Positions 9,490 to 33,072 of a DNA stretch of 64,000 nucleotides are shown one piece after another. How positions within the stretch are numbered: position 1 is the stretch's first letter; every line of letters begins with the position of its first letter. This DNA is from an uncultured delta proteobacterium (GTDB taxonomy: Bacteria > Desulfobacterota > Syntrophia > Syntrophales > Fen-1087): positions 78,858 to 142,857 of the forward strand of contig CAVPWE010000007.1 of assembly GCA_963709485.1 (NCBI GenBank), in the 5' to 3' direction. The notes below the pieces were generated by a model. That model did not search any database. It saw nothing but the letters and a program-made list of their open reading frames with translations, and had not been told where the DNA came from. Position numbers and translations under genes: made by a program.

Positions 9490-9543
9490 TGCACTTCTTC
9501 AAGATTCACAAGTTACTGAAAATGGATTAAGGAGGGGAAGGCC

Positions 9544-10467: not shown

Positions 10468-12374
10468 CCGGGGTTCGACAGTCGTAGGCATTTTTTAGCC
10501 CTTTTGCTGGCGTAAGTGGTTGAAAATACGTGGTGGGACTTCCGGAAAACGGGAAAACGTGTAGGCATGCGAATATGATAATTGTACTTGACATGATTGG
10601 TAGTATGTGTTATATGAGTAGGCATGTATATAAGAACAATCTCCCGAAAGAACAAAGGCGGAACCACCACGACCTATGTCCAGTTGGCCCACAATGTTCG
10701 TGATCCCCAGACCGGGCAGCCACGGGCGGATGTCCTTTACAGTTTCGGGCGTGCCGATACCCTGGATGTTGATGCGATCAGGCGACTGACCAAAAGCCTT
10801 TCCCGCTTTCTTTCTCCTGAAGAGGCTTTGCAGATTCAGGGAGCTGCAGAGGGTGACACGCCGCTTCGATTTGTCAGGAGTTACCCCATGGGCGGCGCCT
10901 ATCTCCTGCGTGCCCTGTGGGAACAGCTGGGAATACCCAATGCTCTTTCTCAATGTATGAAAGATCGGTCGTTTACGTCGCCGGTGGAATGGGCGTCCTT
11001 TGCCATGGCGGCGAATCGCGCCTTGGCCCCTGACTCCAAGCGGGGAGTCGAGGAGTGGGTCAGAGACGATGTGGCACTGAGGAATCCAGAACCTATCGAG
11101 CTTCAGCATCTGTACCGGGCGATGGATGTTCTTCTGGAGTATCGGGAGATCATTCACAAAGAGGTCTTCTTTGCCGTGGCGGATCTTTTGAACCTGGAAG
11201 TGGATCTGATCTTCTTTGACACCACCAGCACCTACTTCGAGATGGATGAAGAGGATGAAGTCGGACTGCGGCAGTACGGTCACTCCAAGGATCACCGGTC
11301 GGATCTTCCGCAGATCGTCATTGGTCTGGCGGTGACGAAAGAGGGTATCCCGGTGAAGTGCTGGACCATGCCGGGGAATACGTCGGATATGAAGACGGTG
11401 GAGACGGTCAAAAATGATCTTCTCGGATGGAAGCTGGGTCGCTGCATCTGGGTCATGGACCGGGGAATGAACTCGGAAGATAACCGCCTGATCCTTCAGA
11501 AGGCCGGCGGTCATTATATTATCGGAGAGAAGCTCCGGGACAACCAGGAGGTCCACAGGGAGGTTCTGGCCAAGCGGGGCAGGTTTACCGCCATCCGGGA
11601 AAATCTGGAAATCAAGGAAGTTATTGTCGGCGATGGGGAGCGCCGCCGCCGGTTTATCCTGGTTCACAATCCCGAAGAGGCCAAAAAGGACAAAGCCACC
11701 CGTGAGAAGACGCTCAAAAAGATTGAGGAAGCGCTTAAGTCCATCAAGGAACAAAAGGGGCAATGTCACAAGAAAAACGTATGCGCCCTGCTGTCTCACC
11801 GAACGATGGGGAGATTCCTGAGGCAGCTGAAAACCGGCGCGATCAAGATCGACAAGGGCAAGATCAAAGAAGAGGCCCATCTGGACGGGAAGTATATCAT
11901 CTCCACCAGTGACGACACGCTGACACCGGAGGACATCGCCTTGGGTTACAAACAGCTGATGGAAGTTGAACGGGCCTTTCGGACCCTGAAGACGACCCTG
12001 GATCTGAGACCTGTCTATCATCGGAAGGATGAACGGATTCAAGCACACGTGTTTCTCTGCTTCCTCGCTCTCCTTTTGGTGAGGATTGCCGAGAGGAAAA
12101 CCAACATGACCTGGGACAGCATTAGAACCCAAATGGACCGTCTTCATCTTGGAGAATTTTTTTCAAAAGAAGGACGGGTTTTACAGACCACCGAACCGAC
12201 CCCTGAACAGTTGAACATATTGAAACAACTAAAAATATCACCGCCGCAACGGATAAGACACATCCAAATGACCCCCTGAATCTGTAGGCACACGCCTAAA
12301 AATCGAGCATGACTTATGTTTTCAATTTTACTTAACAATTTCAATCGCGCTTACCTAACGCTGTCGAAGGGGGG
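10468..12374 (+). mobile_element. IS1634-family (IS4-like) insertion sequence
   Basis: The ends are imperfect inverted repeats: TTCGACAGTCGTAGGCA on the left and TACCTAACGCTGTCGAA on the right. A 5-bp direct repeat GTTCG flanks the element (10463-10467 and 12375-12379). There is a single transposase gene. Confidence 0.75.
10624..12279 (+). CDS. IS1634-family DDE transposase
   Basis: The 551-aa product has the N-terminus MYIRTISRKNKGGTTTTYVQLAHNVRDPQTGQPRADVLYSFGRAD, typical of IS1634 transposases as I remember them. The antisense 550-aa ORF is a shadow. Confidence 0.85.
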   Translation: MYIRTISRKNKGGTTTTYVQLAHNVRDPQTGQPRADVLYSFGRADTLDVDAIRRLTKSLSRFLSPEEALQIQGAAEGDTPLRFVRSYPMGGAYLLRALWEQLGIPNALSQCMKDRSFTSPVEWASFAMAANRALAPDSKRGVEEWVRDDVALRNPEPIELQHLYRAMDVLLEYREIIHKEVFFAVADLLNLEVDLIFFDTTSTYFEMDEEDEVGLRQYGHSKDHRSDLPQIVIGLAVTKEGIPVKCWTMPGNTSDMKTVETVKNDLLGWKLGRCIWVMDRGMNSEDNRLILQKAGGHYIIGEKLRDNQEVHREVLAKRGRFTAIRENLEIKEVIVGDGERRRRFILVHNPEEAKKDKATREKTLKKIEEALKSIKEQKGQCHKKNVCALLSHRTMGRFLRQLKTGAIKIDKGKIKEEAHLDGKYIISTSDDTLTPEDIALGYKQLMEVERAFRTLKTTLDLRPVYHRKDERIQAHVFLCFLALLLVRIAERKTNMTWDSIRTQMDRLHLGEFFSKEGRVLQTTEPTPEQLNILKQLKISPPQRIRHIQMTP

Positions 12375-13438
12375 GTTCGGCATAACCCTGGAGGTAAACG
12401 GATTTTTATTTCGCACCGACCCGGGTGATGTCGATTTCCTGGTAGAGATTTGTAATGACCATAATGATAACCACGACGCTTACCTGCTGCGAAGTTATAA
12501 TAATCTTTTTGACATCTCGGTTCCTTTGGGTGATCCAAGCTTTACATGGTCCCGTGACAACCACATTCATTGGCAACTTTATGATAGCAGCCATACCGCT
12601 TTAGCGAGCACAGCGGGCACAGCGCTGCCAACAATGCCTCCGGTTCTGTCTGATTGGCCATCGCCTTACCGCCTGGACATCAGTAGTCAACAAATCTTCG
12701 GAGACACTCAAAGTTTTTACATCTTGGCCGATGTCAATTCGGTTGTCCTTTCCCCCACATCAGTTCCAGAACCTACCACGATGTTACTGCTCGGTCTTGG
12801 TCTGGTGGGACTTGCAGGAGTCAGGAGGAAGATTCAAAAATAAACTCGGTCACACAGTCGGGTTATGAACACCGCGGTTCTTACTTCGTGAAGGGTGAGG
12901 CAGAGTCAGAAATGGCCCTGCTTTTTTTTGTGTTAAGAACAAATAGATTTGTCCGGTTTTGTAACACATGAGTTGTCCGCTTTTTCTGTTCTTTGCCGGG
13001 GGGCTTTTGAGAACAGGAGGTGAGCGGCGGATATAGGTGGTCTGGGTTCTTAGGACAGGAGACAGGGGTTTATAAGTGGGAAAGCGCTCCTGGTTGATGG
13101 TCATGCCGCCTTTCCGGGCTTTACTTCCATGAGTTTCCCGTGCCTGTGTCTTCCGCTACGCTCCAGTTAGATGGAAACAGGCATCGTCATTTACAGAGGC
13201 GCAGCGCGATCGGCAACATGGTCAGGGCGGGCATACCCGAGCATGTTGCAATGAAGATATCCGGCCACAAGACAAGGAGTGTGTTCGACCGCTATTGTTT
13301 CCGGTCGTGATAAATTGAGCCAAAAATGGTCGTTTAAAAGTGAGCCACTTTGGGGGTGGATATGGTGAGAGAAAAGGGTATGGTGCCTTTTTTATCTCAG
13401 CGTGAGCGAGGTGGCGTATTGAAAAAAAGGAGACCGTT

Positions 13439-14695
13439 TTGGACATACTGGTGTTGGAGCGGAAGGGTTTGAGCCAGCGACAGATCGCCGGGAGGCTGGG
13501 GATCAGCCGCAACACGGTGAAGAAGTACATCGAGAATCAGGGCTACCCGGAGCGAGATCGGAGGGAGCGAAACCGGAAGAGCCTGCTGGATCCATTTCAG
13601 GGCAACATCGCTGCGTGGCTTGAAGAGGACATGGGGTACAAGGCGACATGGATATATGATCATCTTCGTCCCATGGGTTTTGCCGGGAGCTATGAGATCG
13701 TCAAAAGAGCGGTGCACGCGATCAAGGAGGAACGTCAGCGGATCGCCTACATGCGATTTGAGACGGAGCCGGGCTGCCAGTCCCAGGTGGATTTTGGCGA
13801 GTTTCAGTTTGATCGGGCCGACGGCACGGTTGAGAAGATTTATCTCTTTTCGATGATCCTGGGTTTTTCGCGGAGTCTCTACGGTGAGTTCGTCGATCGG
13901 TGCGATTTGCCGACCTTTCTGGCTTGTCATATTCATGCCTTCGACCATTTCGGCGGCGTGACCGAAGAGATCCTCTACGACCGGATGCGGAACGTTTTCA
14001 TCAGAAAGTTAGCCGGCAAGGACCAGTTCAACGACAGCCTGACGGGATTTGCCTTGCATTACGGTTTCAAGCCTCAGGTGGCTCCGCCTTATGCCGCCTG
14101 GGTGAAGGGGAAGGTGGAGCGGCCCTATCACTTCATCCGGGAGGGGTTCTGGCGGGGGTACGGATTCAGTTGCCTGGAGACGGCCAACAGGGACCTTCTC
14201 CAATGGCTTCAGCGCAAAGAGCAGCGGGTTCATGGGACAACCCATGAAGTGGTGTCGGAGCGATTCGAGCGCGAGCGGCCTCATTTACAGGCGCTGCCGC
14301 CGCAGGCATTCGACACCTCCTGGCGGGTCTACCGCAAGGTGAACAAAGACTGCACTGTCCGTTTTGAAGGCAACAGCTATGTGGTGCCTCATACCCTGGT
14401 GGGGAAGGATCTTGTCCTGCGGGTCAAGGACCGATCCATGCGGATCTTTTCGGATGATCATCTGATTGTGACCTACGAAATCCCTGAGGGTAAAGGACAT
14501 CTGGTGCAGGACAAGCGATTTTACGAGGCGCTGAAAAAGGATCGCGAGATGAACCGGCGCAAGTACGGCCAGGGCAGACGCGGCAAGGGTCGCGCCAAAT
14601 GCACGATCAGCCCGATCAAGCCGCTCTATGACATGGATGTTGAGATCCGTCCGCTCCATATTTATGACGGCATGATCGGGGAGGTGCGGATATGA
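13439..14695 (+). CDS. istA: IS21-family transposase IstA
   Basis: The 418-aa ORF starts at TTG after an AGGAG RBS. It has an N-terminal HTH (GLSQRQIAGRLGISRNTVKKYI) followed by a DDE integrase core. Confidence 0.9.
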   Translation: MDILVLERKGLSQRQIAGRLGISRNTVKKYIENQGYPERDRRERNRKSLLDPFQGNIAAWLEEDMGYKATWIYDHLRPMGFAGSYEIVKRAVHAIKEERQRIAYMRFETEPGCQSQVDFGEFQFDRADGTVEKIYLFSMILGFSRSLYGEFVDRCDLPTFLACHIHAFDHFGGVTEEILYDRMRNVFIRKLAGKDQFNDSLTGFALHYGFKPQVAPPYAAWVKGKVERPYHFIREGFWRGYGFSCLETANRDLLQWLQRKEQRVHGTTHEVVSERFERERPHLQALPPQAFDTSWRVYRKVNKDCTVRFEGNSYVVPHTLVGKDLVLRVKDRSMRIFSDDHLIVTYEIPEGKGHLVQDKRFYEALKKDREMNRRKYGQGRRGKGRAKCTISPIKPLYDMDVEIRPLHIYDGMIGEVRI

Positions 14696-15462
14696 GCGAT
14701 GCCCTGGTCCTGGATCGCATCCAGAGCAGCCTGACAAGGCTGAGGCTTCCGCGCATGGGTGAGATCCTGGAAAGTGTGATGCAGTCGGCACAGGAAGGAA
14801 GCAAGAGCTATCTGTCCTTTCTCGACGCACTTCTGGAAGAAGAGGTTGGCTGTCGGGAACAGCGCCGGATTGAAACATCCCTGAAGATATCGGGGCTTCC
14901 CTTCATCAAGAGCATCGACGAGTTCGATTTTTCCTTTCATCCCAAGCTGGATCGCCAGAAGGTGATGTCCCTTTTTGATCTGACCTTTATCCGGCAGAAG
15001 GGCAATGTGGTCTTTCTGGGACCCCCCGGTGTCGGCAAGACCCACCTGGCTGTATCTCTTGCGGTGAAAGCCTGTCAGGCCGGCTTGAGCATCTACTTTA
15101 CCACCATGGAGGATCTGATCGGAAAGTTGAAAAAAGACCATGGCGCCGAGCGGAAAGGCAGAGGCCGGGGCTACAACAAATCGGCGCTGGTGATCGTGGA
15201 TGAGGTTGGCTATACGCCGATCGACAGAGAGGAATGCAATCTCTTCTTCCGATTCATTGCCAATCGGTATGAGAAGGCCAGCACCATCATCACCTCCAAC
15301 AAGGCCTTCTCCGACTGGACGGAACTGTTTCATGATCCGGTCATTGTCACGGCCTTTCTGGATCGCCTGCTGCACCACAGTGTGGTCATCAACATGCGGG
15401 GCAACAGCTACAGGCTCCGTGGAAAGGTCGGAAAAGAGGGGGTGGAAATGAGCCGGTCATAA
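14692..15462 (+). CDS. istB: IS21-family helper ATPase IstB
   Basis: The 256-aa product has a Walker A motif (GPPGVGKTHLA) and a Walker B motif (LVIVDEVGY). Its start overlaps the istA stop. Confidence 0.9.
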   Translation: MSDALVLDRIQSSLTRLRLPRMGEILESVMQSAQEGSKSYLSFLDALLEEEVGCREQRRIETSLKISGLPFIKSIDEFDFSFHPKLDRQKVMSLFDLTFIRQKGNVVFLGPPGVGKTHLAVSLAVKACQAGLSIYFTTMEDLIGKLKKDHGAERKGRGRGYNKSALVIVDEVGYTPIDREECNLFFRFIANRYEKASTIITSNKAFSDWTELFHDPVIVTAFLDRLLHHSVVINMRGNSYRLRGKVGKEGVEMSRS

Positions 15463-15665
15463 GGTCAGGGTGGCTCAGTTTTCACGACCGAAAATGGCTC
15501 ACTTTGAAAAGACCGTTGACAGCTATAACATCGTGTCGCAGGATGACCTGAAGGAGGCGGCCTTAAAGCGGGAGAAATTCAGCAGAAAACAGGCGGGACA
15601 GTTACAATTTGCCCAAAAATGAGGCAAAGGGGCCGAGATTGCGGCTCGTAACCCCTTGATTTCAT

Positions 15666-15711
15666 TGGTGGGCCGTGTGAGGATTGAACTCACGACCAAC
15701 GGATTAAAAGT
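15666..15711 (-). repeat. Partial tRNA-Lys copy 2 (junction between islands A and B)
   Basis: TGGTGGGCCGTGTGAGGATTGAACTCACGACCAACGGATTAAAAGT is identical to 33073-33118. Confidence 0.9.
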
Positions 15712-15865
15712 TATTTCATTATGGATTAGGCCACCTTAAGCCTTGTGTCCTCTCATGTGTTTTTACGGGGGAAAAACCCTTTTAGGCACATTCCAATTAT
15801 CCGCTTGTGTTTTCCTGTATGCGCTTGCATACTTCACAGGCACTTCACAGTAAAAGGCAACGGCA

Positions 15866-16453
15866 ATGGCAAAGGACTGGAAACTGGATAGAGAGCATGT
15901 TGATTTGTGGGCTGAGTGGTTCAAGACACATGTGCCGGTTTGCCATGTTCAAGAATTATGGAAAATCGGGCAGAGTCCTGAGGAACTAAAAAGATTTGCG
16001 GATAAATTCTATGCGGATTTCGAAGGCGTTTTTAGACGCGAAAACAAAACGAAGGAAGATGTCAAAAGTGCGCTTTACCGGTCTTTGGAAAAACTGACAA
16101 TATATCCTTTTACAAAGCGAAGAAAATATCTCTTGGAAGATACCTTAAAAGAGTATTATCTCATAATCCAGACATTTTACGGCGAGCTGTATAAGCACGA
16201 AGCAGAACCATTTGAAACGGTGATAAATGAGGATGACGAAGAAGAAGGGGAACTTACTGACAATCCAAAAATTCCCATCAAGAAGCCTGACGAAGTCGAA
16301 AACGAAATTATTGAGCGCATGGAACCTGATTTAGAGAAATTGAGAGAGCAAGGCAAAAGCACAAGAGAGATTGCGGCAGTATTGAAGGGACAAAAGGGGA
16401 TGTCAAAAAGCACGATTCACAGGCGATTGAAAAAGGAGACAACGAAAAACTAA
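15866..16453 (+). CDS. Hypothetical protein with acidic linker and C-terminal HTH
   Basis: The 195-aa product has a C-terminus GKSTREIAAVLKGQKGMSKSTIHRRLKKE that looks like a resolvase/sigma-r4-type HTH. I do not recognise a family for the N-terminal part. Confidence 0.45.
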   Translation: MAKDWKLDREHVDLWAEWFKTHVPVCHVQELWKIGQSPEELKRFADKFYADFEGVFRRENKTKEDVKSALYRSLEKLTIYPFTKRRKYLLEDTLKEYYLIIQTFYGELYKHEAEPFETVINEDDEEEGELTDNPKIPIKKPDEVENEIIERMEPDLEKLREQGKSTREIAAVLKGQKGMSKSTIHRRLKKETTKN

Positions 16454-16495
16454 AGTCAATGCAAGGTATGATTTCATCAGTTTGAGGTGGCAATC

Positions 16496-17014
16496 ATGAA
16501 AGAATTACTTTCGCCATTTTTCCGTGTCGCGTGCATCGTGATCTTTCTTCACCTGATCATGGCATGTGACTCAATGCAAAAAATGTATGAAGAACGAAAT
16601 GATTCTGATCTTGCAAAGGCTAAATATTTGGGGTCGGAAGAAATCCCACAGGTTGGTGCAAAGTGCGTTTTGACCACATCTTGGCGTGAGGGCCGCCTGT
16701 ATTATATTTTCAGAGCCAGCCCCCTACTGAATCCCAAAGAGTCATTGGAAAACAAACCCCAAGAATTTATAGACAAGGTTATGGCATCAAAGCGTTTTAT
16801 AAGTTCTCTTCAACTTAGGTATGGATACCCCACCTTTACTGTTAAATTGAAAGACCAAGGTGGCTTTGAGATTGTATCCATCGTAATGGCACAACCAACA
16901 CAAATAGTCGATAACGATAATACAGCAACAGGGATAGATCAGAGATCAAGTGTCGAATGCTCCAGAAAGAAGTATCGAGATATTTCAAGTTGGGAAGTTC
17001 AATGGCGGTATTAA
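16496..17014 (+). CDS. Hypothetical lipoprotein-like protein
   Basis: The ORF track gives 16487..17014. I chose the ATG at 16496, which follows a GAGGTGG RBS. The hydrophobic N-terminus ends LIMAC, which is lipobox-like. No family recognised. Confidence 0.4.
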   Translation: MKELLSPFFRVACIVIFLHLIMACDSMQKMYEERNDSDLAKAKYLGSEEIPQVGAKCVLTTSWREGRLYYIFRASPLLNPKESLENKPQEFIDKVMASKRFISSLQLRYGYPTFTVKLKDQGGFEIVSIVMAQPTQIVDNDNTATGIDQRSSVECSRKKYRDISSWEVQWRY

Positions 17015-17168
17015 TGCGCATTAACAGGGGCAGGTAAGTCGAAGCTATTCGTTTACGGAGAAATTGAGCGGTCAGCGGTAATTCCTTTCGATGAAATCAA
17101 AATTGTGCATCAGTCGGATAAACAAAGAGAAGCATTAATATAACATATATATCAAATACTTACTCCAG

Positions 17169-17199
17169 AAAGCCGGTAATTATTCACCGGCTTTTTTAT
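17169..17199 (+). terminator. Rho-independent terminator after the island B cargo pair
   Basis: The stem pairs AGCCGGT (17171-17177) with ACCGGCT (17186-17192) and is followed by TTTTTTATTTTTTT. Confidence 0.6.
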
Positions 17200-17284
17200 T
17201 TTTTTGTTCATGCATGGGACGGTTTCCGCATTTTGCGCGCTATCATCAGATTAAGAGCAAAAAACAATTCTGGAGGCAAAGGAA

Positions 17285-17521
17285 ATGAGACAGTCAAGCG
17301 CAAATGTACCCATCTTGGACATCTATCTAACTTCATTTTTATCCCTTCACGGCATATCGCCACAATTCACAAAACAAGGTTCGCGGATCGTTTTCGAGTT
17401 TCCGGCAAGCAAGGAAGTCAACCAATTGACGCGGGCGTACAATGAAAACCCGTCCGTTCATGTCTTGGATTTTGTCCATCACCTGAGACGGATTCGCTCT
17501 CAAATGCTGTCGGCGCGCTAA
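17285..17521 (+). CDS. Small hypothetical protein (DUF5659-like)
   Basis: The 78-aa ORF follows a GGAGG RBS. The pattern LDIYLTSFLSLHGISPQFTKQGSRIVFEF resembles the DUF5659 family seen next to primases. This is recalled from memory and is weak. Confidence 0.4.
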   Translation: MRQSSANVPILDIYLTSFLSLHGISPQFTKQGSRIVFEFPASKEVNQLTRAYNENPSVHVLDFVHHLRRIRSQMLSAR

Positions 17522-17542
17522 CGGGACAGGAAGGAAACGGAA

Positions 17543-18061
17543 ATGGAAAAACCTGACATTCTTGAAACCGTGAGGCGTGAAGGCTTTGACCCGATACAGA
17601 AAGGCCGTGCCTTCTGGATGTGCTGTGCCTTCCACAATGAACGGACACCCTCTCAAAAACTTGATCCGGTGCGGCAGATGTTCTTCTGTTTCGGATGCGG
17701 CGCGCATGGGGATGCAATCACATTCATTCAGAGGCTTCACAACCTGTCATTCAAAGACGCGCTCCGCTATCTACGAATCGACAGAAACCACAAAGCCAAA
17801 ATCAAACCGGAAGTGCAAACGAAGCGTGATTTAGTCAACGGTTTCCGTCAATGGGAGCGGGATTATTATCAAGAGCTTTGCGCCGCTTCCCATGACTTCC
17901 ACAACATCAAGAAGGGCTTCAAGACGATTGAAGACGTGGAATTTTTTCAAGAGGAATTCGATTTGATGCCGGTGATTGAATGGCACATGGACATCCTTGC
18001 AAACGGAAACGATGAAGACAAATACGGGCTTTACTGCCTTGTGAAAGGGAAAGATCAATGA
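17543..18061 (+). CDS. CHC2 zinc-finger primase-like protein
   Basis: The sequence CCAFHNERTPSQKLDPVRQMFFCFGCGAHGDAITF has the DnaG/P4-alpha type CHC2 zinc-finger pattern. No TOPRIM domain is seen in this 172-aa product. Confidence 0.65.
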   Translation: MEKPDILETVRREGFDPIQKGRAFWMCCAFHNERTPSQKLDPVRQMFFCFGCGAHGDAITFIQRLHNLSFKDALRYLRIDRNHKAKIKPEVQTKRDLVNGFRQWERDYYQELCAASHDFHNIKKGFKTIEDVEFFQEEFDLMPVIEWHMDILANGNDEDKYGLYCLVKGKDQ

Positions 18062-19341
18062 CGTTTGAACTGGCAGAAACACTATTTCGAGACACACACG
18101 AAAAAGAAGAAACCATCACCCTAAACGGCGATTCATCGTCATGGCCTGCCCCTATCGATGAAGCGGCCTATCAGGGGCTTGCCGGTGAAATCGTCAAGGC
18201 GATTGAACCGCACACGGAGGCCGATCCTGTTGCAATCCTGATTCAAACCTTGACGTTCTTCGGCAACATCATCGGGGACGGGCCGCATTTCAGAGTAGAG
18301 GCAGACCGTCACCCTTTACGGCTTTTTTCCGTGATTGTCGGGCAGTCCAGCAAGTCGCGCAAGGGAACATCGGAAGGAATTGTGAAACGGCTTTTTCACG
18401 ACATCGATGAAGAATGGGCGCGCGAGCGGATCAAGGGCGGGCTGTCAAGCGGCGAAGGGCTTGCTTACCATGTGCGCGATGCGGGGACAATTGGCAAATA
18501 TGAAGACTCCGGCGTAAGTGACAAGCGGCTTCTTGTGTGTGAAAGCGAGTTTGCAAGCGTCTTGAAAAGCGCAAGCCGTGACGGAAACATCCTGTCACCT
18601 GTGATTCGGCAGGCATGGGACACCGGCAATCTTCAGACGTTGACAAAGAACAATCCCGTCAAGGCAACCGGCGCGCACGTTTCCATAAGCGCGCACATCA
18701 CGGAAGACGAATTGAGACGATACCTGTCACAAACGGAAATGTTCAATGGCTTCGGAAATCGATTCATTTGGCTTTGCGTGAAGCGTTCAAAGGTTTTGCC
18801 GGAAGGCGGGATGATCCATCAAATGGACTTAAGCTCTCTGAGCGACAGAATTCGTGATGCTGTCCAATTTGCAAAGCGCGTTGATGAAATCACACGGGAT
18901 GAGGAATCGCGTGAAATCTGGAAAAGCATTTATGAAGAACTTTCGGAAGGGAAGCGGGGATTGATAGGGGCGATCCTTTCCAGAGCGGAAGCGCAAGTCA
19001 TGCGCCTTTCGTGCGTCTATGCTTTGATGGATCGTTCAAGGGTTGTGCGGGCTGAGCATCTTCACGCCGCTCTTGCCCTGTGGGATTACGCTGAAGCGTC
19101 CGTCAATTACATTTTTAGAGGCAAGACGGGGGATGAAGTGGCAGACCGGATTCATCAAGCATTGAGCGAGTCTGAAAATGGGTTGACACGGACAGATATC
19201 AATAATCTTTTCGGAGGACACAAAAGCACAGAGCGGATTGATGAAGCTCTGGAGCTTTTGAAAACATACAAGAAGATAAATATCCGCAAACAGGACACCG
19301 GAGGACGACCGACAGAGAGAATCTTTCGGGGTGCGGAATAA
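18058..19341 (+). CDS. DUF3987 (YfjI-like) protein, putative replication/helicase-loader partner of the primase
   Basis: The 427-aa ORF overlaps the primase ORF by ATGA. The N-terminus PAPIDEAAYQGLAGEIVKAIEPHTEADPVAILIQTLTFFGN is typical of DUF3987 proteins, which pair with CHC2 primases in integrative elements. Confidence 0.55.
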   Translation: MTFELAETLFRDTHEKEETITLNGDSSSWPAPIDEAAYQGLAGEIVKAIEPHTEADPVAILIQTLTFFGNIIGDGPHFRVEADRHPLRLFSVIVGQSSKSRKGTSEGIVKRLFHDIDEEWARERIKGGLSSGEGLAYHVRDAGTIGKYEDSGVSDKRLLVCESEFASVLKSASRDGNILSPVIRQAWDTGNLQTLTKNNPVKATGAHVSISAHITEDELRRYLSQTEMFNGFGNRFIWLCVKRSKVLPEGGMIHQMDLSSLSDRIRDAVQFAKRVDEITRDEESREIWKSIYEELSEGKRGLIGAILSRAEAQVMRLSCVYALMDRSRVVRAEHLHAALALWDYAEASVNYIFRGKTGDEVADRIHQALSESENGLTRTDINNLFGGHKSTERIDEALELLKTYKKINIRKQDTGGRPTERIFRGAE

Positions 19342-19419
19342 GCGGAGAAAGCGGAATAAGACTTACTGTTGATACTTTTTCCTCATAATCCGCTTTTTCC
19401 GCAAGGAAGGGATGAAATC

Positions 19420-19767
19420 ATGGGCTATCTGCAATTGGCTTTGAAGGCAGTCAAACCGACAATCACAGGGAACGAAAAAAGGGAGGAATCGAAAATCAGG
19501 CTTGTCAAGACCATGACGGAGGCGCGCCGTCAAAGCCTTGAAGATGCGATGACGGAAATCCTTGTAAGCGCACGAGACAGGATCACCGCAAGATACGCAG
19601 GGGGACAATACACGGCAACGCATGAAATCCGGCAGGCAGAAACCGCTATTGATACACTTTACCATGAAGTCATTGCCGGTGAAGCGGGAATTGATGACTT
19701 CGGCAAGGCCGTTAGGCAATGGGAAGGGCTTTGCTTAAGGTTTAGAGACTTAAGGAACGGAGGGTAA
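19420..19767 (+). CDS. Hypothetical protein
   Basis: The ORF track gives 19369..19767. I chose the ATG at 19420, which follows an AAGGAAGGG RBS. No family recognised. Confidence 0.35.
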   Translation: MGYLQLALKAVKPTITGNEKREESKIRLVKTMTEARRQSLEDAMTEILVSARDRITARYAGGQYTATHEIRQAETAIDTLYHEVIAGEAGIDDFGKAVRQWEGLCLRFRDLRNGG

Positions 19768-19773
19768 ACTAAC

Positions 19774-20373
19774 ATGCGAAAAGTGAACGATACCGAACTA
19801 ATCAAAATGATTGAATCCGGCATGACACAACGGCAGGCGGCAGAGCATTTCGGTGTTACGGAAGGGGCAATCTCTCAGCGGGTAAAGCGTCTCAAATCAC
19901 AAAGACCGCCTGAGAGCTTCGAAAGGCTGACGGACAAAGAGAAGGGCTTTGTCTTGGCAAAAGTCGAAGGCAAATCGAATCTGGAAGCCGTCAAGGCATC
20001 TTATGATTGCACATCGAATGAGAGCGCGAAGGCGTTGGGAACTAAACTCATGAAAGACCCTGACATTTCCGAGTGCATCCATGATCTGTTGCATCAAGAG
20101 GGAATCGGCAGGCGCAGACGGGTTCAGAGGCTTCGGGATTTGATTGAATCCGGCAACATGACGGATGTCGGCAGGGGTCTGGACATGGCCAACAAAATGA
20201 CCGGGTCGTATGCGCCGATTGAAGTGAAAACGGATGTCTCCATTCTGGTCGAGGAAATTTTGCGAGTAAGAGATGAAATGGAGCCGTGGAAAAGCCAGGG
20301 GGAAAAGTTTCTTGCTGACAAGGCATCACAGGAAAATGATTCTGTGATCGATATTCAACCGGAAGAAACTTAA
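19774..20373 (+). CDS. Terminase small-subunit-like protein with extra N-terminal HTH
   Basis: LTDKEKGFVLAKVEGKSNLEAVKASYDCTSNESAKALGTKLMKDPDISECI follows the Terminase_2 pattern (LT.ke..F...Y....N...A...AGY......A......LL.n..I). It is preceded by the HTH GMTQRQAAEHFGVTEGAISQRVKRL. Confidence 0.5.
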   Translation: MRKVNDTELIKMIESGMTQRQAAEHFGVTEGAISQRVKRLKSQRPPESFERLTDKEKGFVLAKVEGKSNLEAVKASYDCTSNESAKALGTKLMKDPDISECIHDLLHQEGIGRRRRVQRLRDLIESGNMTDVGRGLDMANKMTGSYAPIEVKTDVSILVEEILRVRDEMEPWKSQGEKFLADKASQENDSVIDIQPEET

Positions 20374-20503
20374 GTCTTTTCAAAGTCGGGGGGGGAATAT
20401 TGACCGCACATGACGATATTCGAGCATACCGGCATCCCCCCCTGTCGCCGGTGTACGGCAGGGACAAATAAGGGATTCCTTAAACTGAATTTGAAAGGAA
20501 GGA

Positions 20504-20854
20504 ATGACGAATCGAATGACAGATGACAGCGCGAATCAGTCCTTGATGATTCAAACGCTTATTCCTCAGCAGACCATCCAGACCATCATCGATATGACGG
20601 CAGAGAAAGTCTTTCGGATGGTCAGACCGCTTCTGTGCCCATCCTCAAACACAGACGAAATCTTTGACGTGAAAGGACTTGCCGCATATCTGAAAAGCAC
20701 GGAGGCATGGATAAGGGAACAGGCGCGCAACGGAAACATTCCCTGTTTCAAGAGCGGCAAGCAATGGAAATTCCGCAAGCGGCAGATCGACAAACTCTAT
20801 CAATCACGCGCTTTGCTTCCGGTTTCAACGGCGAGCATCAAAGCCAGAGGATAA
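20504..20854 (+). CDS. Excisionase-family (MerR-like) HTH DNA-binding protein
   Basis: FDVKGLAAYLKSTEAWIREQARNGNIPCFKSGKQWKFRKRQIDKL fits the excisionase/AlpA-type helix-turn-helix pattern. Confidence 0.5.
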   Translation: MTNRMTDDSANQSLMIQTLIPQQTIQTIIDMTAEKVFRMVRPLLCPSSNTDEIFDVKGLAAYLKSTEAWIREQARNGNIPCFKSGKQWKFRKRQIDKLYQSRALLPVSTASIKARG

Positions 20855-20953
20855 GCGGCAAACGGATATTGTGTCCGTTATATGCTGAGAATAATCTTGA
20901 ATAGTCAGTCACTTGCAAAATGCTGTGAATTAAATTGTGAACAAAAAAACTTC

Positions 20954-20982
20954 TTGACAAATGCTAACTGAGTTATTACACT
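20954..20982 (+). promoter_or_regulatory. Sigma-70-type promoter giving a probably leaderless XRE transcript
   Basis: TTGACA (20954-20959) is followed by a 17-nt spacer and then TACACT (20977-20982). Only 6 nt separate the -10 hexamer from the ATG at 20989, and there is no Shine-Dalgarno sequence. Confidence 0.4.
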
Positions 20983-20988
20983 AAAGCC

Positions 20989-21189
20989 ATGAAGAATTGG
21001 ACACCGGAAGAAATCAAGGCGCTCAGGAAACGGTTAGGCCTATCGCAAGCCATGTTCGGCAAGCGCATAGGGATCACACGGCAACATGTCTATTACCTTG
21101 AAAGGGGGGAGCGCACGGCAAGCAAAACTTTAATGTTGTTATTGGATTACATTGAAAACGACAAGGGAAAGGAGAGTCAAGATGATTGA
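20989..21189 (+). CDS. XRE-family HTH transcriptional regulator
   Basis: In the 66-aa product, IKALRKRLGLSQAMFGKRIGITRQHVYYLERGER is a canonical Cro/CI-type HTH. Confidence 0.8.
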   Translation: MKNWTPEEIKALRKRLGLSQAMFGKRIGITRQHVYYLERGERTASKTLMLLLDYIENDKGKESQDD

Positions 21190-21391
21190 ACATGGTTCAT
21201 TCTATCAGTTTATGAAATGGACTTTTTCATTAATACCAATTTTCATTGCAGGGCTTGTTTCTGAAAATTCGTTGGTGTGGATAGCGGCATATGGAGTGTT
21301 CATCGTTACTTTTGGTCTAATAGTTATTTCAGAACAATTAGAAAATTTGATTCACTTGGAGGTAAAAGAAAATGGCAAAGGGAATTTATAA
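21182..21391 (+). CDS. Small two-TM membrane protein
   Basis: This is the internal ATG of ORF 21152..21391 and follows an AAGGAGAG RBS. The product MIEHGSFYQFMKWTFSLIPIFIAGLV...WIAAYGVFIVTFGLIVI has two hydrophobic spans. The ORF overlaps the XRE stop and the integrase start. Confidence 0.4.
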   Translation: MIEHGSFYQFMKWTFSLIPIFIAGLVSENSLVWIAAYGVFIVTFGLIVISEQLENLIHLEVKENGKGNL

Positions 21392-22472
21392 GCGCGGGCA
21401 CGTCTTCTGGATTGCCTATGCCTCGCTTGATGGAAAGGTTGTCCGTGAATCATCGAAATCGGAAAGATTCAAGGATGCCGAGACCCTTCTAATCAAGCGG
21501 CGGCAGTCTGTCAGAGAAGGGAAGATGCCGGAGATAAAACGGATCGGCAACCATTCATTCAATGATCTTGTGAAAGATTATCTGAAATTTGCCGAAAGAC
21601 AACGCGCTTTCAAGCAGAAAGAGCTTGTCATAAATCAGCTTAAAGAACGATTCGGGCAGTTACCGTTAAGACGATTCGACACAAGGCTTATTGAGACTTA
21701 TCAAAATCAGAAGAGATTGCAGACTGGGAACAAACCGGCAACGATCAACCGTCATGTTGCAACCATCAAGCATATGTTCACAAAGGCCGTTGAGTGGGAC
21801 ATGGTAGAGGAAGACACCTTGAAACGGATCAGACGGGCAAAACTGCTTGAGGAAAACAATAGACGGCTTCGCTATCTGTCAACGGAAGAATGTCAAACCC
21901 TGATTGATGCCTGTGACAAGCATCTGAAACACTTGAAGCCGATTGTTGTCATGGCCTTGAACACCGGCATGAGGAAAGGAGAAATCCTGAATTTGAAATG
22001 GGATGACGTTGACATGAAGCACGGCTTCATACTTCTATCCCATACAAAGAACGGAGAACGGCGGGAAATCCCGATCAATCCGACTTTGAAGGCACACCTT
22101 GAAGAATTATTCAAAGGGACTGTAAAGAGACCCCGGAAAATCAATGTGCCCTTTGTCTTCTATGACTATACAACCGAGAAACCATATAAAAACGTTCATA
22201 ATTCGTTTGTGTCGGCTTGCAAGAAGGCGAATATACGGGATTTCAGATTTCACGATCTGAGGCATACCTTTTCAAGTCAGCTTGTCATGGCAGGAATCGA
22301 TATTACAACCGTCAAGGAATTGTTAGGTCACAAGACCCTAACCATGACCCTCAGATATGCCCATCTTGCACCCTCTCACAAAGTCAAGGCCGTTGATATT
22401 CTGGATCAGGCCTTGAGCACTTCGCGAACTTCACAATTACTTCACAAAAAAGAAGGGATTGCAAATGAATAA
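21372..22472 (+). CDS. int: Tyrosine-type site-specific integrase (island B)
   Basis: The 366-aa product has the N-terminus MAKGIYKRGHVFWIAY. The catalytic region contains HDLRHTF, LLGHKTLTMTLRYAHL and the catalytic Tyr. The stop lies 23 nt before tRNA-fragment copy 3. Confidence 0.9.
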   Translation: MAKGIYKRGHVFWIAYASLDGKVVRESSKSERFKDAETLLIKRRQSVREGKMPEIKRIGNHSFNDLVKDYLKFAERQRAFKQKELVINQLKERFGQLPLRRFDTRLIETYQNQKRLQTGNKPATINRHVATIKHMFTKAVEWDMVEEDTLKRIRRAKLLEENNRRLRYLSTEECQTLIDACDKHLKHLKPIVVMALNTGMRKGEILNLKWDDVDMKHGFILLSHTKNGERREIPINPTLKAHLEELFKGTVKRPRKINVPFVFYDYTTEKPYKNVHNSFVSACKKANIRDFRFHDLRHTFSSQLVMAGIDITTVKELLGHKTLTMTLRYAHLAPSHKVKAVDILDQALSTSRTSQLLHKKEGIANE

Positions 22473-22495
22473 CACTTGCAACCCCTTGATTTCGT

Positions 22496-22542
22496 TGGTG
22501 GGCCGTGTGAGGATTGAACTCACGACCAACGGATTAAAAGTC
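22496..22542 (-). repeat. Partial tRNA-Lys copy 3 (junction between islands B and C)
   Basis: TGGTGGGCCGTGTGAGGATTGAACTCACGACCAACGGATTAAAAGTC is identical to 33073-33119. Confidence 0.9.
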
Positions 22543-22627
22543 AGTCGTTTCAAGCTGTTATAATTCAGCTTTTTCTATTCATAGCGTGGACACGGCTTTG
22601 ATATTCAAAGCGAATATGTGGACACGA

Positions 22628-23719
22628 TCACTTCCCGCCGGTCAACTTCCCGAGGACATCCGCCGCCTGCTCCAGGTGCTTTCCCGCAACATGAGTGTAG
22701 AACTCGGTCGTCGTGATCGCCTTGTGGCCGAGAAACTTCTGGACGATCCGGGAGCTGATCCCGGAAGCCATCAGGTGCGTCGCACATGAATGTCGGAACA
22801 GATGAGGCGTCACGCGCTTCGTGATCCTCGCATCCTTACATATCCGCCGGAGGGCTGTTCGGATGTCGTAAACGGGCTTCCCTGATCGTCCAGAAAGAAA
22901 GATATAGTCCTCGGCTTGCGACGTTTGCCCAGGAGCGGCGATCTCCATGAGGGAGGACAGCAGGGCCGGGGTCAAAAGGAGCAGCTTGAAACTGCCGCCT
23001 TTTTGCTTGACGGTCAAAGTCCGGTTGTCGATGTCGATGTCCTGACGGCGGATGTTCCTGGCCTCGTTCATCCTCAAGCCGAGTCCGTATAAGCACAGGA
23101 TCAACGCCCGGTGCGTCGGGCCTGCCGCCTCAAGTATCCTGACAATCTCATCGGGTGACAGCACCATCGGGATCGGGCGGGACTCCGGGAGCTTGCTGAT
23201 CTTTAAGATCGGGACGGACATATTTTTCTCGGTCCGGCACCATTTCAAGAATCCTCTAAAATAATCCAGTTCCTTGTTTACGGTGCGGCCTGACGGGGCC
23301 TGTCGCGGGACTTTCTCCCGGGCCTTGACCTTGACCTTGTTTCGTGTCTGCTCGGCCTTGCGGAGCTTCTGGTACAGCGACAAATGCTCGTTTGTGAGTC
23401 CTTCGATCCGCTTGTCCCCGAGCAGCCGGGACAGGTGGGCGTCGTATGTCAGATCGACATCCTTCCATGTCCAGGGGCGCGATGGAGTTTGTACCACTGG
23501 AGATATTCGGGAAAGAGATCATCGACCAGGGCGGACCGATCAGGCGGTCTGTTGCCGAGCTTTGCGGCCCGGTGCATGGACTTTATGTCCCGCTCGTATT
23601 GCTCGGCCTCCGCACGGTCCGTGATCTCCGGGGGCAGGGGCAGCCGGACGCGGCGGCCATGGCGTCCACCGAGGCAATAGTCGATCACAGAGCGGATCTT
23701 TATGCCAGTTTACGGCCAT
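22628..23719 (-). pseudogene. int: Tyrosine integrase of island C, reading frame broken once or twice
   Basis: The catalytic part is ORF 22628..23497 (HLFRHSCATHL, LGHKAITTTEFYTHV). The N-terminal SAM-like part is ORF 23449..23688 (...DDLFPEYLQWYKLHRAP). The two frames join if one C is added to the C4 run at 23474-23477 (G4 on the plus strand). A possible upstream ATG at 23719 (MAVNWHKDPL) is in a third frame. Confidence 0.7.
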
Positions 23720-23735
23720 GATTGTGTTCCTGATT

Positions 23736-23770
23736 CAGATGGGCGGAACCGTTCCGCCCATCTGTTTTTG
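23736..23770 (+). terminator. Perfect 14-bp palindrome followed by T5 (terminator-like in plus orientation) just upstream of the island C integrase start
   Basis: CAGATGGGCGGAAC (23736-23749), a single C, then GTTCCGCCCATCTG (23751-23764), then TTTTT (23765-23769). Confidence 0.45.
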
Positions 23771-24628
23771 CCGCGTTCAAGTTTCCTGACTGCCCCCCCC
23801 ATGCAGAGGCCAAGCTGGGGGATATTGCCGAAGGCGATACCGAAGCCTAAATTAAGCAAGGCCATCAATGGTTCACTGCGGGCACTATCACCCTGCCCCC
23901 TGGCGTGTCCAAGCAGACATCCACCGGGCGCAGACCATCGGCAAATCCGACATCGTGTCATTTTTCATATAACATAAATTTATTGAAAAATATCTGACTT
24001 TCTTTTAATGCGCTTTATTAAGTAATCAACTCAATCAATAGAGGGGCTTGACTTGAAATCTGAATTTTAATCTTGACGTTGCAAAGGGGTTACAGATCGA
24101 GCGGGGCCGTTTCCGTGAATGGGTTGTCAACGAATACATCAAACCATCCGTCAAGGCGTCGGGGGCGGGAACGCGGGCCGTTTTCACACTGCAAGACGTT
24201 TATCTGATCGCCCTGTTCCTGCATCTGATCGAGTACGGATTCAACCGTGCATCCGCCGGGGCTTTTGTGAATGACTTCGCTGAAAAAATCAAATCGGAGA
24301 AGAAAAGGGGAGTTTACCCGGAAACCGTCTATATCGTTTTTCGCGATGGGGAAGTTGAACGCTTCGGGCCTGGACCGTGGAAGCTTGACGTTCAGTCGTT
24401 CACTATTGATTGGGCGTCTTTCAAACCCCAAATTCGCAGTGACGGGGAAAGAGTGTCAGTTTCCGGCGGGCAACATGGACGTGCAAGTGAAAAAGGATGA
24501 GGATTGGAAGTCTGGACACGTCGTGAACTTTGGGGCATTGCGGCGAGAGGTCGATGCGGCAATGGAGAAGATTTAATTTTTTTTGCCAGAGATATTAAGC
24601 AAGTTGCTTAATGCACAAGGGGGTTGAA

Positions 24629-24838
24629 ATGGAAAGGGCAATTTTGTGGCCGTTGAAAATAGCGATCACGGAAAAGTTTAAGAGTCAATTCCAGTTCGCG
24701 CAGCACATGGGCGAACATGAATCGACCGTCTCCCGGGTTGTCCGGGGGGCGCATGAGCTTGACCAGGAGGACCAACGAGCCTGGGCCGAAGCCCTGGGCG
24801 AGAATTACGAGGCGTTATTCTGTGAGCGCAAGCCCTAA
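24629..24838 (+). CDS. Small HTH regulatory protein (XRE-like)
   Basis: The ORF track gives 24611..24838. I chose the ATG at 24629, which follows an AAGGGGG RBS. SQFQFAQHMGEHESTVSRVVRGAHEL fits a Cro/CI-type HTH. Confidence 0.55.
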   Translation: MERAILWPLKIAITEKFKSQFQFAQHMGEHESTVSRVVRGAHELDQEDQRAWAEALGENYEALFCERKP

Positions 24839-25127
24839 CATCGAGTCCCGCCTGGCAAAGATCGAATCCCTGCTGGAGGAGCTTCTCGGCCTCATGGCCG
24901 GACAGCAGCCGCCGGGGAGGTACGAGTACGAGCGGGCCTTGAAAGAGGCCAGCAGGGGCAACAGGAAGCCGTTGTATGAATACATCGCGAAGGGAGGGCG
25001 ACCAGGTGGAATCAGCGATTGACAGATTTTTTCAGATTCTTGACCAAACTTCTACATGGGGAACTTTGGTCACCGGGGCCGTGGCGGTGATCTGGATCAT
25101 CATGCCGGTGGTGGTGCGGTGAATACC

Positions 25128-26069
25128 ATGTCCGCCAAATACGCCGAGGCCCTGGGCAACATCCCGCCGCCGGGGTGCGGCTGCCATCCGTTTCTGCTCT
25201 CCGTGTCGAATTACGGGGTCATGGCGGGCCTTTCGCCCGAGACCATATACTCGGACATCTCGGCGGCCATCCCTCCAGGGGAACGGCGCATCTCGGACCG
25301 GGAGATCGAGTCGGCCATCAAGAAGGCACTGCAGGACCACGGCAAGGGCGGAGGGTACATCCCCCGGAAGCCGGAGCCGGTCGTAAAGGACGGCCGAGCG
25401 GCGCGGGAACGGATCATCAACAAGGCGCGGATCACGGACGAAGCGGACCTGTGGGACGCATCCCCGATCCGCCTGTGGGATGAACCGGACCAGGACGCGG
25501 TCCTGTTCCTCAATGTGGTGTTCCTCCCCGACGACCAGGTCTGGATCGGGGAGCGTACCGATCCGGGCATCCTCGGCGTGAACATCAAGTCCGCCGCCGT
25601 ATGGATCGAACATTTCAAAGCGGGCGGGACATCCGGCCCGTTCATCATCATCAATCCCCTGTCCGGCAAGTGGGCAAACGTCAAGGGCGGCGATGGGATC
25701 ACCTTCCGGGGCGATAATAACGTGGCGGATTTCGCTCATTGCCTTGTTGAGTTTGACAACATCCCCCGAGAGGAGCAGCTGCGGTTTTGGGCCGCCGCAA
25801 ATCTTCCCATCGTCGCCTTGATTGATTCCGGCGGCAAGAGCATTCACGCCTGGATCGAGGTTCAGAAGCTGGCGGTCGTGAACACGCTTGCCGAGTGGCA
25901 GCAGCACATCAAGTGCCGCCTCTATGACGGGAACCTGGTCCCGATGGGCGTTGATCCGGCCTGCTCTAATCCATCCCGCCTGTCCAGGCTACCAGGACAT
26001 TTCAGACAAGAAAAAAATTCATATCAGAAAATCCTTTGGCTATCGCCGGAGGGGAGGACGATCCAATGA
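25128..26069 (+). CDS. Archaeo-eukaryotic-primase (prim-pol)-like replication protein
   Basis: This is the internal ATG of ORF 25056..26069. The acidic motif CLVEFDN and the motif SGGKSIHAWI fit AEP motifs I and II (DxD-like and sGxGxH). The ending SRLSRLPG is typical of plasmid/satellite primase domains. Confidence 0.5.
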   Translation: MSAKYAEALGNIPPPGCGCHPFLLSVSNYGVMAGLSPETIYSDISAAIPPGERRISDREIESAIKKALQDHGKGGGYIPRKPEPVVKDGRAARERIINKARITDEADLWDASPIRLWDEPDQDAVLFLNVVFLPDDQVWIGERTDPGILGVNIKSAAVWIEHFKAGGTSGPFIIINPLSGKWANVKGGDGITFRGDNNVADFAHCLVEFDNIPREEQLRFWAAANLPIVALIDSGGKSIHAWIEVQKLAVVNTLAEWQQHIKCRLYDGNLVPMGVDPACSNPSRLSRLPGHFRQEKNSYQKILWLSPEGRTIQ

Positions 26070-27843: not shown

Positions 27844-27852
27844 GGGGTGGTC

Positions 27853-28149: not shown

Positions 28150-28161
28150 CGGAGGGACATC

Positions 28162-33067: not shown

Positions 33068-33072
33068 GTAAT

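Follow-up and report, generated by a model that had tools for sequence, protein, structure and literature searches.

Island B occupies positions 15712-22495 of a 64,000-nucleotide stretch of DNA from an uncultured bacterium of the Syntrophales (the window). It is an intact, horizontally acquired integrative element that was inserted by tyrosine-integrase recombination into the 3' end of a tRNA-Lys gene. Based on its gene content, we judge the chances to be about even that island B is a phage satellite, a parasite of a helper phage, resembling the phage-inducible chromosomal islands (PICIs) and the phage-inducible chromosomal minimalist islands, or PICMIs. The element belongs to a family of elements, found in anaerobic bacteria, that has not been described before and that may be a satellite family.

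Island B lies in a tandem array at a single tRNA gene

The sole tRNA gene of the window is a tRNA-Lys(ttt) on the minus strand (33073-33147), and its 3' 46-47 nt are present as four direct-repeat copies located at 6281-6347, 15645-15711, 22475-22541 and 33052-33118. Four copies indicate three tandem islands at one tRNA, which we designate A, B and C. Island B, 6.8 kb in length, is delimited by the second and third copies, 67-nt direct repeats that are 96% identical and whose right-hand 46-47 nt are the 3' end of tRNA-Lys(ttt). The predicted attachment site of the excised element (attP) reads ...CACTTGCAACCCCTTGATTTCGTTGG, followed by the 46-nt core and TATTTCATTATGGATTAGG.... Ordinary host genes are found left of 6281 (CsgG-like, DEAD helicase, phosphatase, MBL and DUF5329), whereas on the right-hand side of the tRNA there are housekeeping genes (purA, serA, radA-like, GroEL and IleRS). 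The G+C content of island B is 40-51%, compared with 57-62% in the housekeeping DNA right of the tRNA.

A first-pass annotation, made from the sequence alone, had described island B as a compact, unbroken element with all of its genes on one strand. Indeed, all eleven open reading frames (ORFs) between the repeats are on the plus strand, none is broken, and homologues elsewhere align with them over their full length. The integrase gene abuts the tRNA-derived repeat as described, ending at 22472 with the repeat starting at 22475. We scanned ten of the eleven ORFs, all except a 79-aa ORF, against Pfam and PHROG, while Pfam, PHROG and NCBIfam taken together covered all eleven. Among the ten ORFs, no capsid, portal, large terminase (TerL), tail or lysis family was matched in Pfam, PHROG or NCBIfam, so that the claimed absence of capsid, portal, large-terminase and tail genes held up.

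The TerS-like protein is a remote relative of phage small terminases

The putative packaging gene encodes a protein similar to the small terminase subunits (TerS) of phages. This TerS-like protein has an extra helix-turn-helix (HTH) at residues 1-45 and a Terminase_2-type HTH with a first core helix at residues 49-137, while its C-terminal third is one long helix. Two PHROG terS families, 641 and 51, match residues 37-109 at 2.8e-8 and 8.5e-8, respectively. Thirty-three of 37 close homologues were aligned (alignment A2), and 17 of these 33 match Terminase_2 at E <= 0.01, the best at 9.4e-6. We compared this alignment to a reference of ten annotated phage TerS proteins, from SPP1 and nine diverse phages, nine of which are encoded directly upstream of TerL. 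The two alignments were matched by hhalign with 96.6% probability (E 5.3e-10, 86 columns), pairing residues 49-137 with residues 5-96 of SPP1 G1P, a segment that spans the HTH plus the first of the helices in the oligomerisation core.

Structure prediction was consistent with these results. The AlphaFold model is helical, with a pLDDT (predicted local distance difference test) of 86 and weaker confidence at residues 110-160. Using Foldseek, the model superposes on the DNA-binding domain of SF6 G1P (4zc3, residues 1-57) with a TM (template modelling) score of 0.82 and a root-mean-square deviation of 2.0 Å. Of the top 50 fold matches in the BFVD viral structure library, 24 are named terminase small subunit and only two carry another functional name, both as generic HTH proteins. 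Relative to G1P, the core of the TerS-like protein is shorter, its central hairpin is shortened and the C-terminal beta-barrel segment is not predicted. As judged from alignments and predicted structures, the relationship to genuine phage TerS is remote and partial. The earlier call of a Terminase_2-like small subunit with an additional HTH survived the profile searches put to it (PHROG at about 1e-8, hhalign at 96.6%) and has fold support, although the protein itself falls below the Pfam cut-off.

As a separate matter, a 15-nt exact direct repeat inside the terS-like gene, TGATTGAATCCGGCA (19808-19822 and 20141-20155), was considered as a packaging (pac) element. It was rejected on two grounds: the repeat lacks conservation in ten relatives, and each of its two copies encodes the same 'IESG'.

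Relatives form a family of small islands in which no virion genes were found

In public data, the TerS-like family comprises 144 clusters (50% identity) at E <= 1e-30. Gene look-ups together with searches of GTDB genomes (24 loci) and metagenomes (80 loci) gave 88 distinct loci, and the named hosts are Syntrophales, Smithella, 'Deltaproteobacteria', Thermodesulfovibrionales, Nitrospirota, Syntrophorhabdales and one Atribacterota bin. A recurring gene order was observed: variable cargo, DUF5659, zinc ribbon, helicase, small protein, TerS-like, HTH_17, XRE, integrase and tRNA. Within this order the replication module is exchangeable, with variants consisting of DUF3987, AAA_25, a DUF3854-ATPase fusion or a primase/helicase fusion. 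A further variant has a D5_N/DUF5906 protein with a zinc-ribbon-Toprim protein, and int at the opposite end. Of the family's markers, the terS-like gene is the best conserved, and it persists while replication modules are swapped.

An integrase is found near the terS-like gene in 21 of the 27 loci with at least 2.5 kb of downstream sequence (18 on the same strand within 4 kb, three upstream). Because the gap between the terS-like gene and int holds two small HTH genes only, there is no room for TerL, and no TerL adjoins the terS-like gene in any family member examined. For twelve distinct relatives, boundaries could be set from a tRNA and the repeat of its 3' part (30-69 nt), which gave sizes of 6.4, 7.1, 7.1, 7.8, 8.0, 8.5, 9.1, 9.3, 9.6, 10.4, 10.9 and 11.6 kb. 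Their targets are about ten tRNAs, namely Gln, Arg, Leu (three anticodons), Ala, Lys, Thr, Ser and SeC. The cargo of the larger relatives includes a PDZ/CsgG-like protein, MerR-HicB, a TPR-adhesin and trypsin-TPR. PHROG matches in the relatives screened were to primase or helicase only, no virion genes were found in them, and none of the TerS-like homologues examined was surrounded by a complete prophage. Thus, the alternative raised in the first-pass annotation, that homologues of island B always reside in complete prophages, does not apply to the family.

The same survey bears on whether island B is an integrative mobilisable element, one that would be transferred by conjugation using an origin of transfer (oriT) and the machinery of a co-resident conjugative element. 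Small size and the presence of int, xis and replication genes without virion genes are shared with such elements, some of which carry an oriT alone and would be invisible to the domain searches used. However, no relaxase or other conjugation domain was detected in the island B ORFs (Pfam, NCBIfam), the relatives screened also lack relaxases, coupling proteins and other conjugation domains, and conjugative mobilisation leaves a TerS homologue unexplained. We therefore consider this explanation improbable.

A sister element carries the junction expected from excision

One metagenome contig, L008 (6,481 nt, Logan SRR12022132), is a sister element of island B, with an integrase that is 93% identical, a zinc ribbon that is 88% identical, and DUF3987 and TerS-like proteins that are 66% and 62% identical, respectively. 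The contig is circularly permuted, with int codons 1-324 at its end and the last 42 codons at its start. When the ends are joined via an 8-nt terminal overlap, the int frame reads through as ...HKTLSMTLRYAHL.... Following the int stop are the right-end arm of island B, one tRNA-like core and then the left-end sequence of island B. By sequence, this arm-core-arm junction is exactly the attP expected from excision. The source of the contig may be a circle, a concatemer or a chromosomal tandem. Additionally, eleven metagenome contigs stop 60-175 nt past the int stop, at the attachment (att) core (L009, L010, L011, L042, L044, L053, L057, L060, L062, L073 and L084). Such breaks are expected when populations mix cells with and without the element, or contain excised forms. 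Integration is thus seen for island B itself, and the circular form for one relative only.

These data also speak to the idea that island B is a decayed prophage remnant which has lost its structural genes. The neighboring island C does look decayed, with a truncated capsid gene, and the genes of island B have phage-family relatives. Every ORF of island B is intact, though, and the same compact layout, with precise att repeats and a length of 6.4-11.6 kb, is repeated in dozens of genomes that belong to several phyla; a sister element has also been found in circular form. With an architecture that is both intact and recurrent, we regard prophage decay as very improbable, even more so than conjugative mobilisation.

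Several observations concern the attachment sites themselves. When positions 1-250 of L008 were compared with 22475-22541 and 15666-15760 of the window, the attP core of L008 proved to be the 3' half of tRNA-Phe(GAA), in contrast to tRNA-Lys in island B, and only 33 of 46 positions are identical despite integrases that are 93% identical. In relatives whose integrases are 63-84% identical, Lys, Cys or Arg cores lie behind the same conserved arm. The target tRNA seems to change faster than the integrase. In islands A and B, as well as in relatives that target Phe, Cys and Arg tRNAs, the integrase stop is followed by an arm motif, AACCC(N)TTGATTT(N2)TGG, as seen at 15645-15668, at 22475-22498 and at L008 125-165. 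The same motif is also present 5' of the leftmost repeat, in the stretch 6255-6303 and only about 38 nt past a host gene, which suggests a fourth, deleted element of which this is probably the last trace.

Comparison with known satellites

PICIs are defined by a core of five components, namely an integrase, a regulator of the alpA, merR or stl type, a primase-replicase, capsid morphogenesis and a small terminase (PMC10085698). No tail, holin, portal or connector gene is allowed, and it is common for elements to have four of the five components (PMC10085698). 'Type B' PICIs are without a capsid-morphogenesis gene (PMC10085698). By function, as assigned from Pfam and PHROG domains, island B would match four of the five components, provided that a CHC2 zinc ribbon and a DUF3987 helicase with no catalytic primase domain detected are counted as the primase-replicase, and it is missing capsid morphogenesis. 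The integrase component is represented by PF00589 and PHROG_1, regulation by Pfam matches to HTH_17 (PF12728) and XRE HTH_3, and the small terminase through remote homology only. The ten ORFs scanned with Pfam and PHROG gave no match in the head or capsid category, and none of the eleven ORFs matched a tail, holin, portal or head-tail connector/adaptor family in Pfam, PHROG and NCBIfam combined. Island B is also like PICIs in its size (the PICI median is 9.5 kb; PMC10085698), its accessory cargo, and its regulation module of AlpA/Xis-type and XRE proteins. The TerS proteins of the Staphylococcus aureus pathogenicity islands (SaPIs) SaPI1 and SaPIbov1 redirect the helper TerL to satellite DNA, and by analogy the same mechanism would be expected for island B.

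There are also clear differences. In PICIs int is divergent from the remaining genes, whereas island B genes run in one direction with int last. The TerS of SaPIs resembles that of co-occurring phages, while for the island B protein, with its additional HTH and shortened core, no phage counterpart was found. No capsid-morphogenesis, Ppi or Rpp gene is recognisable in island B. Hosts differ as well, since >99.9% of detected PICIs are in chromosomes of Proteobacteria or Firmicutes (PMC10085698) and the island B family is found in anaerobes of the Syntrophales/Thermodesulfobacteriota/Nitrospirota type. We found no sequence kinship of island B to known PICIs or to any described satellite, and the literature searched held no published link between satellites and these host lineages.

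For PICMIs, the mandatory markers are int, alpA (PF05930 or PF12728), prim (DUF3987 or DUF5906) and fis (PMC10803314). Of these, co-localised int, alpA-type (PF12728) and DUF3987 genes are present in island B, the last assigned via the homologue P0040, and island B shares with PICMIs a very small size and few genes. Its 79-aa ORF, which overlaps the int start, recalls iolg, the integrase-overlapping gene that PICMIs need for excision. PICMIs integrate beside fis; this marker is lacking here, as island B is located at tRNA-Lys with no adjacent Fis-type gene. PICMIs have no terS and are thought to be headful-packaged as concatemers without a redirection gene, whereas island B has a terS-like gene. 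They are limited to Vibrionaceae, and their helpers are virulent phages (PMC10803314).

Closest to island B in lifestyle are the PICI-like tycheposons of Prochlorococcus and the marine VEIMEs (virion-encapsidated integrative mobile elements), a likeness of described features and not of hallmark-gene homology. Similar to island B, these elements have a tRNA-targeting tyrosine recombinase, xis and swapped primase/helicase modules, and, like islands A-C, they line up in tandem to form a genomic island at a single tRNA (bioRxiv 10.1101/2020.12.28.424599; PMC9618062). In some members terS or a capsid gene is the sole packaging function; here, island B with its terS-like gene and island C with its capsid fragment are neighbors. 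PICI-like tycheposons are reported never to have extra cargo, while the island B family carries cargo (bioRxiv 10.1101/2020.12.28.424599).

The first-pass annotation had likened island B to either P4-like or PICI-like satellites. A PICI/PICMI-type gene set is present, but the P4-like option was rejected. P4-like satellites have a psu-delta-sid operon, epsilon and an alpha primase-helicase, with alpA and int (PMC10085698, PMC8628076). Only int and an AlpA-type HTH are present in island B, and psu, delta, sid, epsilon and the alpha primase-helicase had no match in Pfam or PHROGs among its ORFs. Lastly, the Terminase_2 small terminases (SPP1/SF6 G1P; PF03592) align with the TerS-like protein in the N-terminal DNA-binding HTH and the first core helix. 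The TerS-like protein differs from them in scoring under the gathering threshold, in never being encoded beside TerL, in its extra HTH and in having no predicted beta-barrel segment.

Proposed life cycle and weight of the satellite reading

If island B is a satellite, the following cycle can be proposed. The XRE protein would keep the element quiescent until induction, when the integrase would act with the HTH_17 protein to release it. Replication of the excised circle would fall to the zinc-ribbon protein and the DUF3987 helicase. Since a catalytic primase domain was not detected, priming would probably be carried out by the host. The TerS-like protein would bind a pac site of the element and recruit the TerL of the helper phage, and the DNA would then be packaged by headful into helper capsids, as with SaPI TerS. 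The lipoprotein gene would travel as passenger cargo.

A number of results weigh against this proposal. Regulation, replication and above all packaging of island B are inferred from gene content. We identified no helper phage, and none is present in the 64-kb window. No capsid-remodelling or packaging-interference gene is recognisable in island B, and the co-directional arrangement of its genes with int last is unlike that of canonical PICIs. The TerS-like protein scores 17.0 bits against Pfam Terminase_2 (PF03592), under the gathering threshold of 26.1. Its detectable TerS homology consists of the DNA-binding HTH and one helix only, with an extra HTH present and the usual C-terminal part lacking. 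No phage counterpart was found: among IMG/VR viral contigs, 114 matches to patterns of the TerS-like family included 0 confirmed relatives, and a tblastn search of 50,697 phage genomes gave 0 TerS-like relatives, its matches being confined to the generic N-terminal HTH of an Arthrobacter phage protein. VEIME TerS proteins, in contrast, resemble the TerS of co-occurring phages (PMC9618062). Finally, the L008 junction may derive from a chromosomal tandem duplication.

Because the homology is confined to the DNA-binding part and a phage counterpart is lacking, the TerS-like protein could instead be a regulator or an origin-binding protein. Island B would then be a replicative integrative element but not a satellite, comparable to a cargo-carrying tycheposon or an integrated plasmid-like replicon, with the double-HTH protein acting as a regulator or origin-binding initiator that shares an ancestral HTH with TerS. 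Such an element would excise and replicate in the way proposed for the satellite, but would spread by vesicles, transformation or incidental generalised transduction and not by dedicated hijacking. The restriction of the homology to residues 49-137, the sub-threshold Pfam score and the missing relatives among phage genomes and viral contigs all agree with this explanation. A PDB sequence profile search with the TerS-like protein likewise returned generic HTH regulators only, and a Foldseek search of PDB with the whole model gave no significant global match, the good match being to the small TerS DNA-binding domain only. The cargo of the family is varied and non-phage (PDZ/CsgG-like, TPR-adhesin, trypsin-TPR and MerR-HicB); most tycheposons are without packaging genes, and the PICI-like ones have never been seen with cargo (bioRxiv 10.1101/2020.12.28.424599).

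Three results speak against a replicative element of this kind. The functionally named BFVD fold matches are nearly all TerS (24 against two generic HTH proteins), the hhalign match runs past the HTH into the TerS core helix, and the terS-like gene is kept through swaps of the replication module. An initiator should co-vary with its replicon, and thus the constancy of the terS-like gene would be odd for an initiator. We consider the non-satellite replicative element a serious competitor but the less probable of the two explanations.

Returning to the satellite reading, a broader form of it can be stated for the family as a whole. Island B would represent an undescribed and phylogenetically broad satellite family of anaerobic, largely uncultured hosts (Syntrophales, other former Deltaproteobacteria and Thermodesulfovibrionales/Nitrospirota). 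Its hallmark would be a double-HTH, shortened TerS-type protein without a phage counterpart, and its members would exchange replication modules freely and retarget near-identical integrases to other tRNAs by swapping the att core. We propose this joint reading tentatively, with somewhat less than even confidence.

Gene content of island B

The features of island B and its attachment sites are listed in Table 1. The first-pass annotation placed a two-gene cargo at the left end, followed by a terminator. Of these genes, the 175-aa putative lipoprotein is the only clear cargo; it has no match in Pfam, PHROG, NCBIfam or PADLOC and no homologues in related loci. The 195-aa gene is kept in sister elements and is therefore probably a backbone or regulatory gene instead of cargo. 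At the place of the terminator following the second gene, a terminator-like hairpin with a T-run was confirmed.

Table 1. Features of island B and its attachment sites in the window.
Feature	Positions	Strand	Remarks
attL, left attachment repeat	15645-15711		tRNA-Lys 3' core of 46 nt at 15666-15711; the 21 nt left of the core are the right arm of island A
195-aa protein, C-terminal HTH	15866-16453	+	weak HTH_32/HTH_38 matches; 55% identical to L008 homologue, 32% to L016 homologue
175-aa putative lipoprotein	16487-17014	+	hydrophobic N-terminus and Cys; sole clear cargo gene
Terminator-like hairpin	17167-17206	+	11-bp stem, then T-run; downstream of 175-aa cargo gene
DUF5659 protein, 78 aa	17285-17521	+	Pfam 27.5 bits (cut-off 23.6); 65-90% identical in L006, L008, L009 and L017
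DnaG-type CHC2 zinc-ribbon protein, 172 aa	17543-18061	+	PF01807 75.8 bits, residues 18-84; PHROG 11992 over full length
DUF3987-family P-loop protein, 427 aa	18058-19341	+	presumed replicative helicase; start overlaps zinc-ribbon gene (ATGA, 18058-18061)
115-aa conserved protein	19420-19767	+	predicted three-helix bundle; single-sequence AF2 (AlphaFold2) pLDDT 77; alignment A4 of 12 homologues
TerS-like protein, 199 aa	19774-20373	+	N-terminal extra HTH, Terminase_2-type HTH and first core helix, long C-terminal helix
HTH_17 (excisionase/AlpA-type) protein	20504-20854	+	Pfam PF12728 29.8 bits; PHROG excisionase families; NCBIfam 'excise' domain
Promoter-like site TTGACA-17-TACACT	20954-20982	+	consensus match alone; directly 5' of XRE gene
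XRE-family HTH regulator, 66 aa	20989-21189	+	Pfam HTH_3 44 bits
79-aa ORF, two hydrophobic segments	21152-21391	+	overlaps 3' end of XRE gene and start of int (int by 20 nt)
Tyrosine integrase, 366 aa	21372-22472	+	Pfam Phage_integrase PF00589 121.5 bits; PHROG_1 2.8e-69
attR, right attachment repeat	22475-22541		element-borne arm 22475-22495; tRNA-Lys core 22496-22541
tRNA-Lys(ttt), attachment target	33073-33147	-	island C now between tRNA and island B

The DUF5659 gene is the conserved first gene of the replication block, and the earlier calls of a DUF5659 protein, an excisionase-type HTH protein and an XRE regulator all have Pfam support. The replication module of island B consists of a CHC2 zinc ribbon and a DUF3987-type helicase, joined by the ATGA overlap that had been noted. 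For the CHC2 primase-like protein, the zinc ribbon was clearly supported but a catalytic primase domain was not: the 172-aa protein is a zinc ribbon alone, and no TOPRIM or AEP (archaeo-eukaryotic primase) catalytic domain was detected in island B. Similarly, the DUF3987 assignment stands only by way of a relative, as the 427-aa protein itself has no Pfam match while its homologue P0040, 73% identical, matches DUF3987 at 48 bits. The 427-aa protein has at least 7925 homologues; most close ones contain PF13148 (DUF3987), and many are fused to PrimPol, PriCT or zinc-ribbon domains. One DUF3987 protein has been demonstrated to be a 5'-3' helicase that partners with a PrimPol (PMC11724360). A search of island B for iterons or obvious origin repeats found none, and PADLOC identified no defence systems.

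Within this subfamily the 115-aa gene is always found directly 5' of the terS-like gene. A word-index homologue search with the 115-aa protein returned the query alone, a profile of 12 homologues had no PDB or PHROG relative, and its model had no Foldseek match. The HTH_17 protein is, from its domain matches, the presumed recombination directionality factor. The 79-aa ORF has homologues in two relatives only (L016 and L054, 50% identical), making its status as a gene uncertain. On the minus strand, which is the strand of the tRNA, a 15-bp hairpin with a T-run (22487-22443) spans the int stop and the right arm of island B. Judging from its position, this hairpin could be the terminator of the reconstituted tRNA gene when the element directly adjoins the tRNA.

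Neighboring islands A and C

Island A (6348-15644) encodes five proteins with a PEP-CTERM tail, the sorting signal of which is encoded by a 94-nt repeat common to them, as well as an IS4-type transposase (10624-12279). Its integrase has been split into two fragments (13140-13310 and 15470-15622) by an IS21 insertion sequence (istA/istB, 13439-15462), and no replication or terS-like gene was seen in this island.

Island C (22542-33051) has its own integrase on the minus strand (22628-23497), along with genes for an HTH_3 protein, a primase-like protein (25056-26069) and an AAA_25 helicase (26036-27136). Additionally, positions 30557-31039 encode part of a major capsid protein of the HK97 type, a 160-aa fragment that matches Pfam Phage_capsid at 81 bits over positions 71-215 of the 280 in the profile. 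Because of this fragment, island C looks like a decayed capsid-bearing element, either a remnant of the capsid-forming PICI (cfPICI) type or a prophage remnant, next to the terS-bearing island B.

A 37-nt match was also found between islands B and C (17475-17511 and 28052-28088), with 26 of 37 positions identical, a 13-nt exact block and the att-repeat spacing of 10,577 nt. None as good was obtained in 365,820 tests at other offsets. At the protein level, though, the two ORFs involved are not similar, and elsewhere islands B and C are unrelated at this offset. The match may be due to chance.

Implications for anaerobic bacteria

Nearly all phage satellites with experimental support are from Proteobacteria, Firmicutes and a few marine groups. 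If island B and its relatives are satellites, satellite biology would extend to the syntrophic and sulfate-reducer-type anaerobes of digesters, sediments and aquifers, in which phage-host-satellite interactions are essentially unknown. The double-HTH TerS-like protein provides a simple marker for finding such elements, and island B offers a compact natural system for dissecting int, xis, replication and a single putative packaging gene. The family is also an example of closely related integrases with different tRNA att cores. If the elements are not satellites, these bacteria would instead harbor an abundant family of small cargo shuttles that replicate themselves, a more ordinary result.

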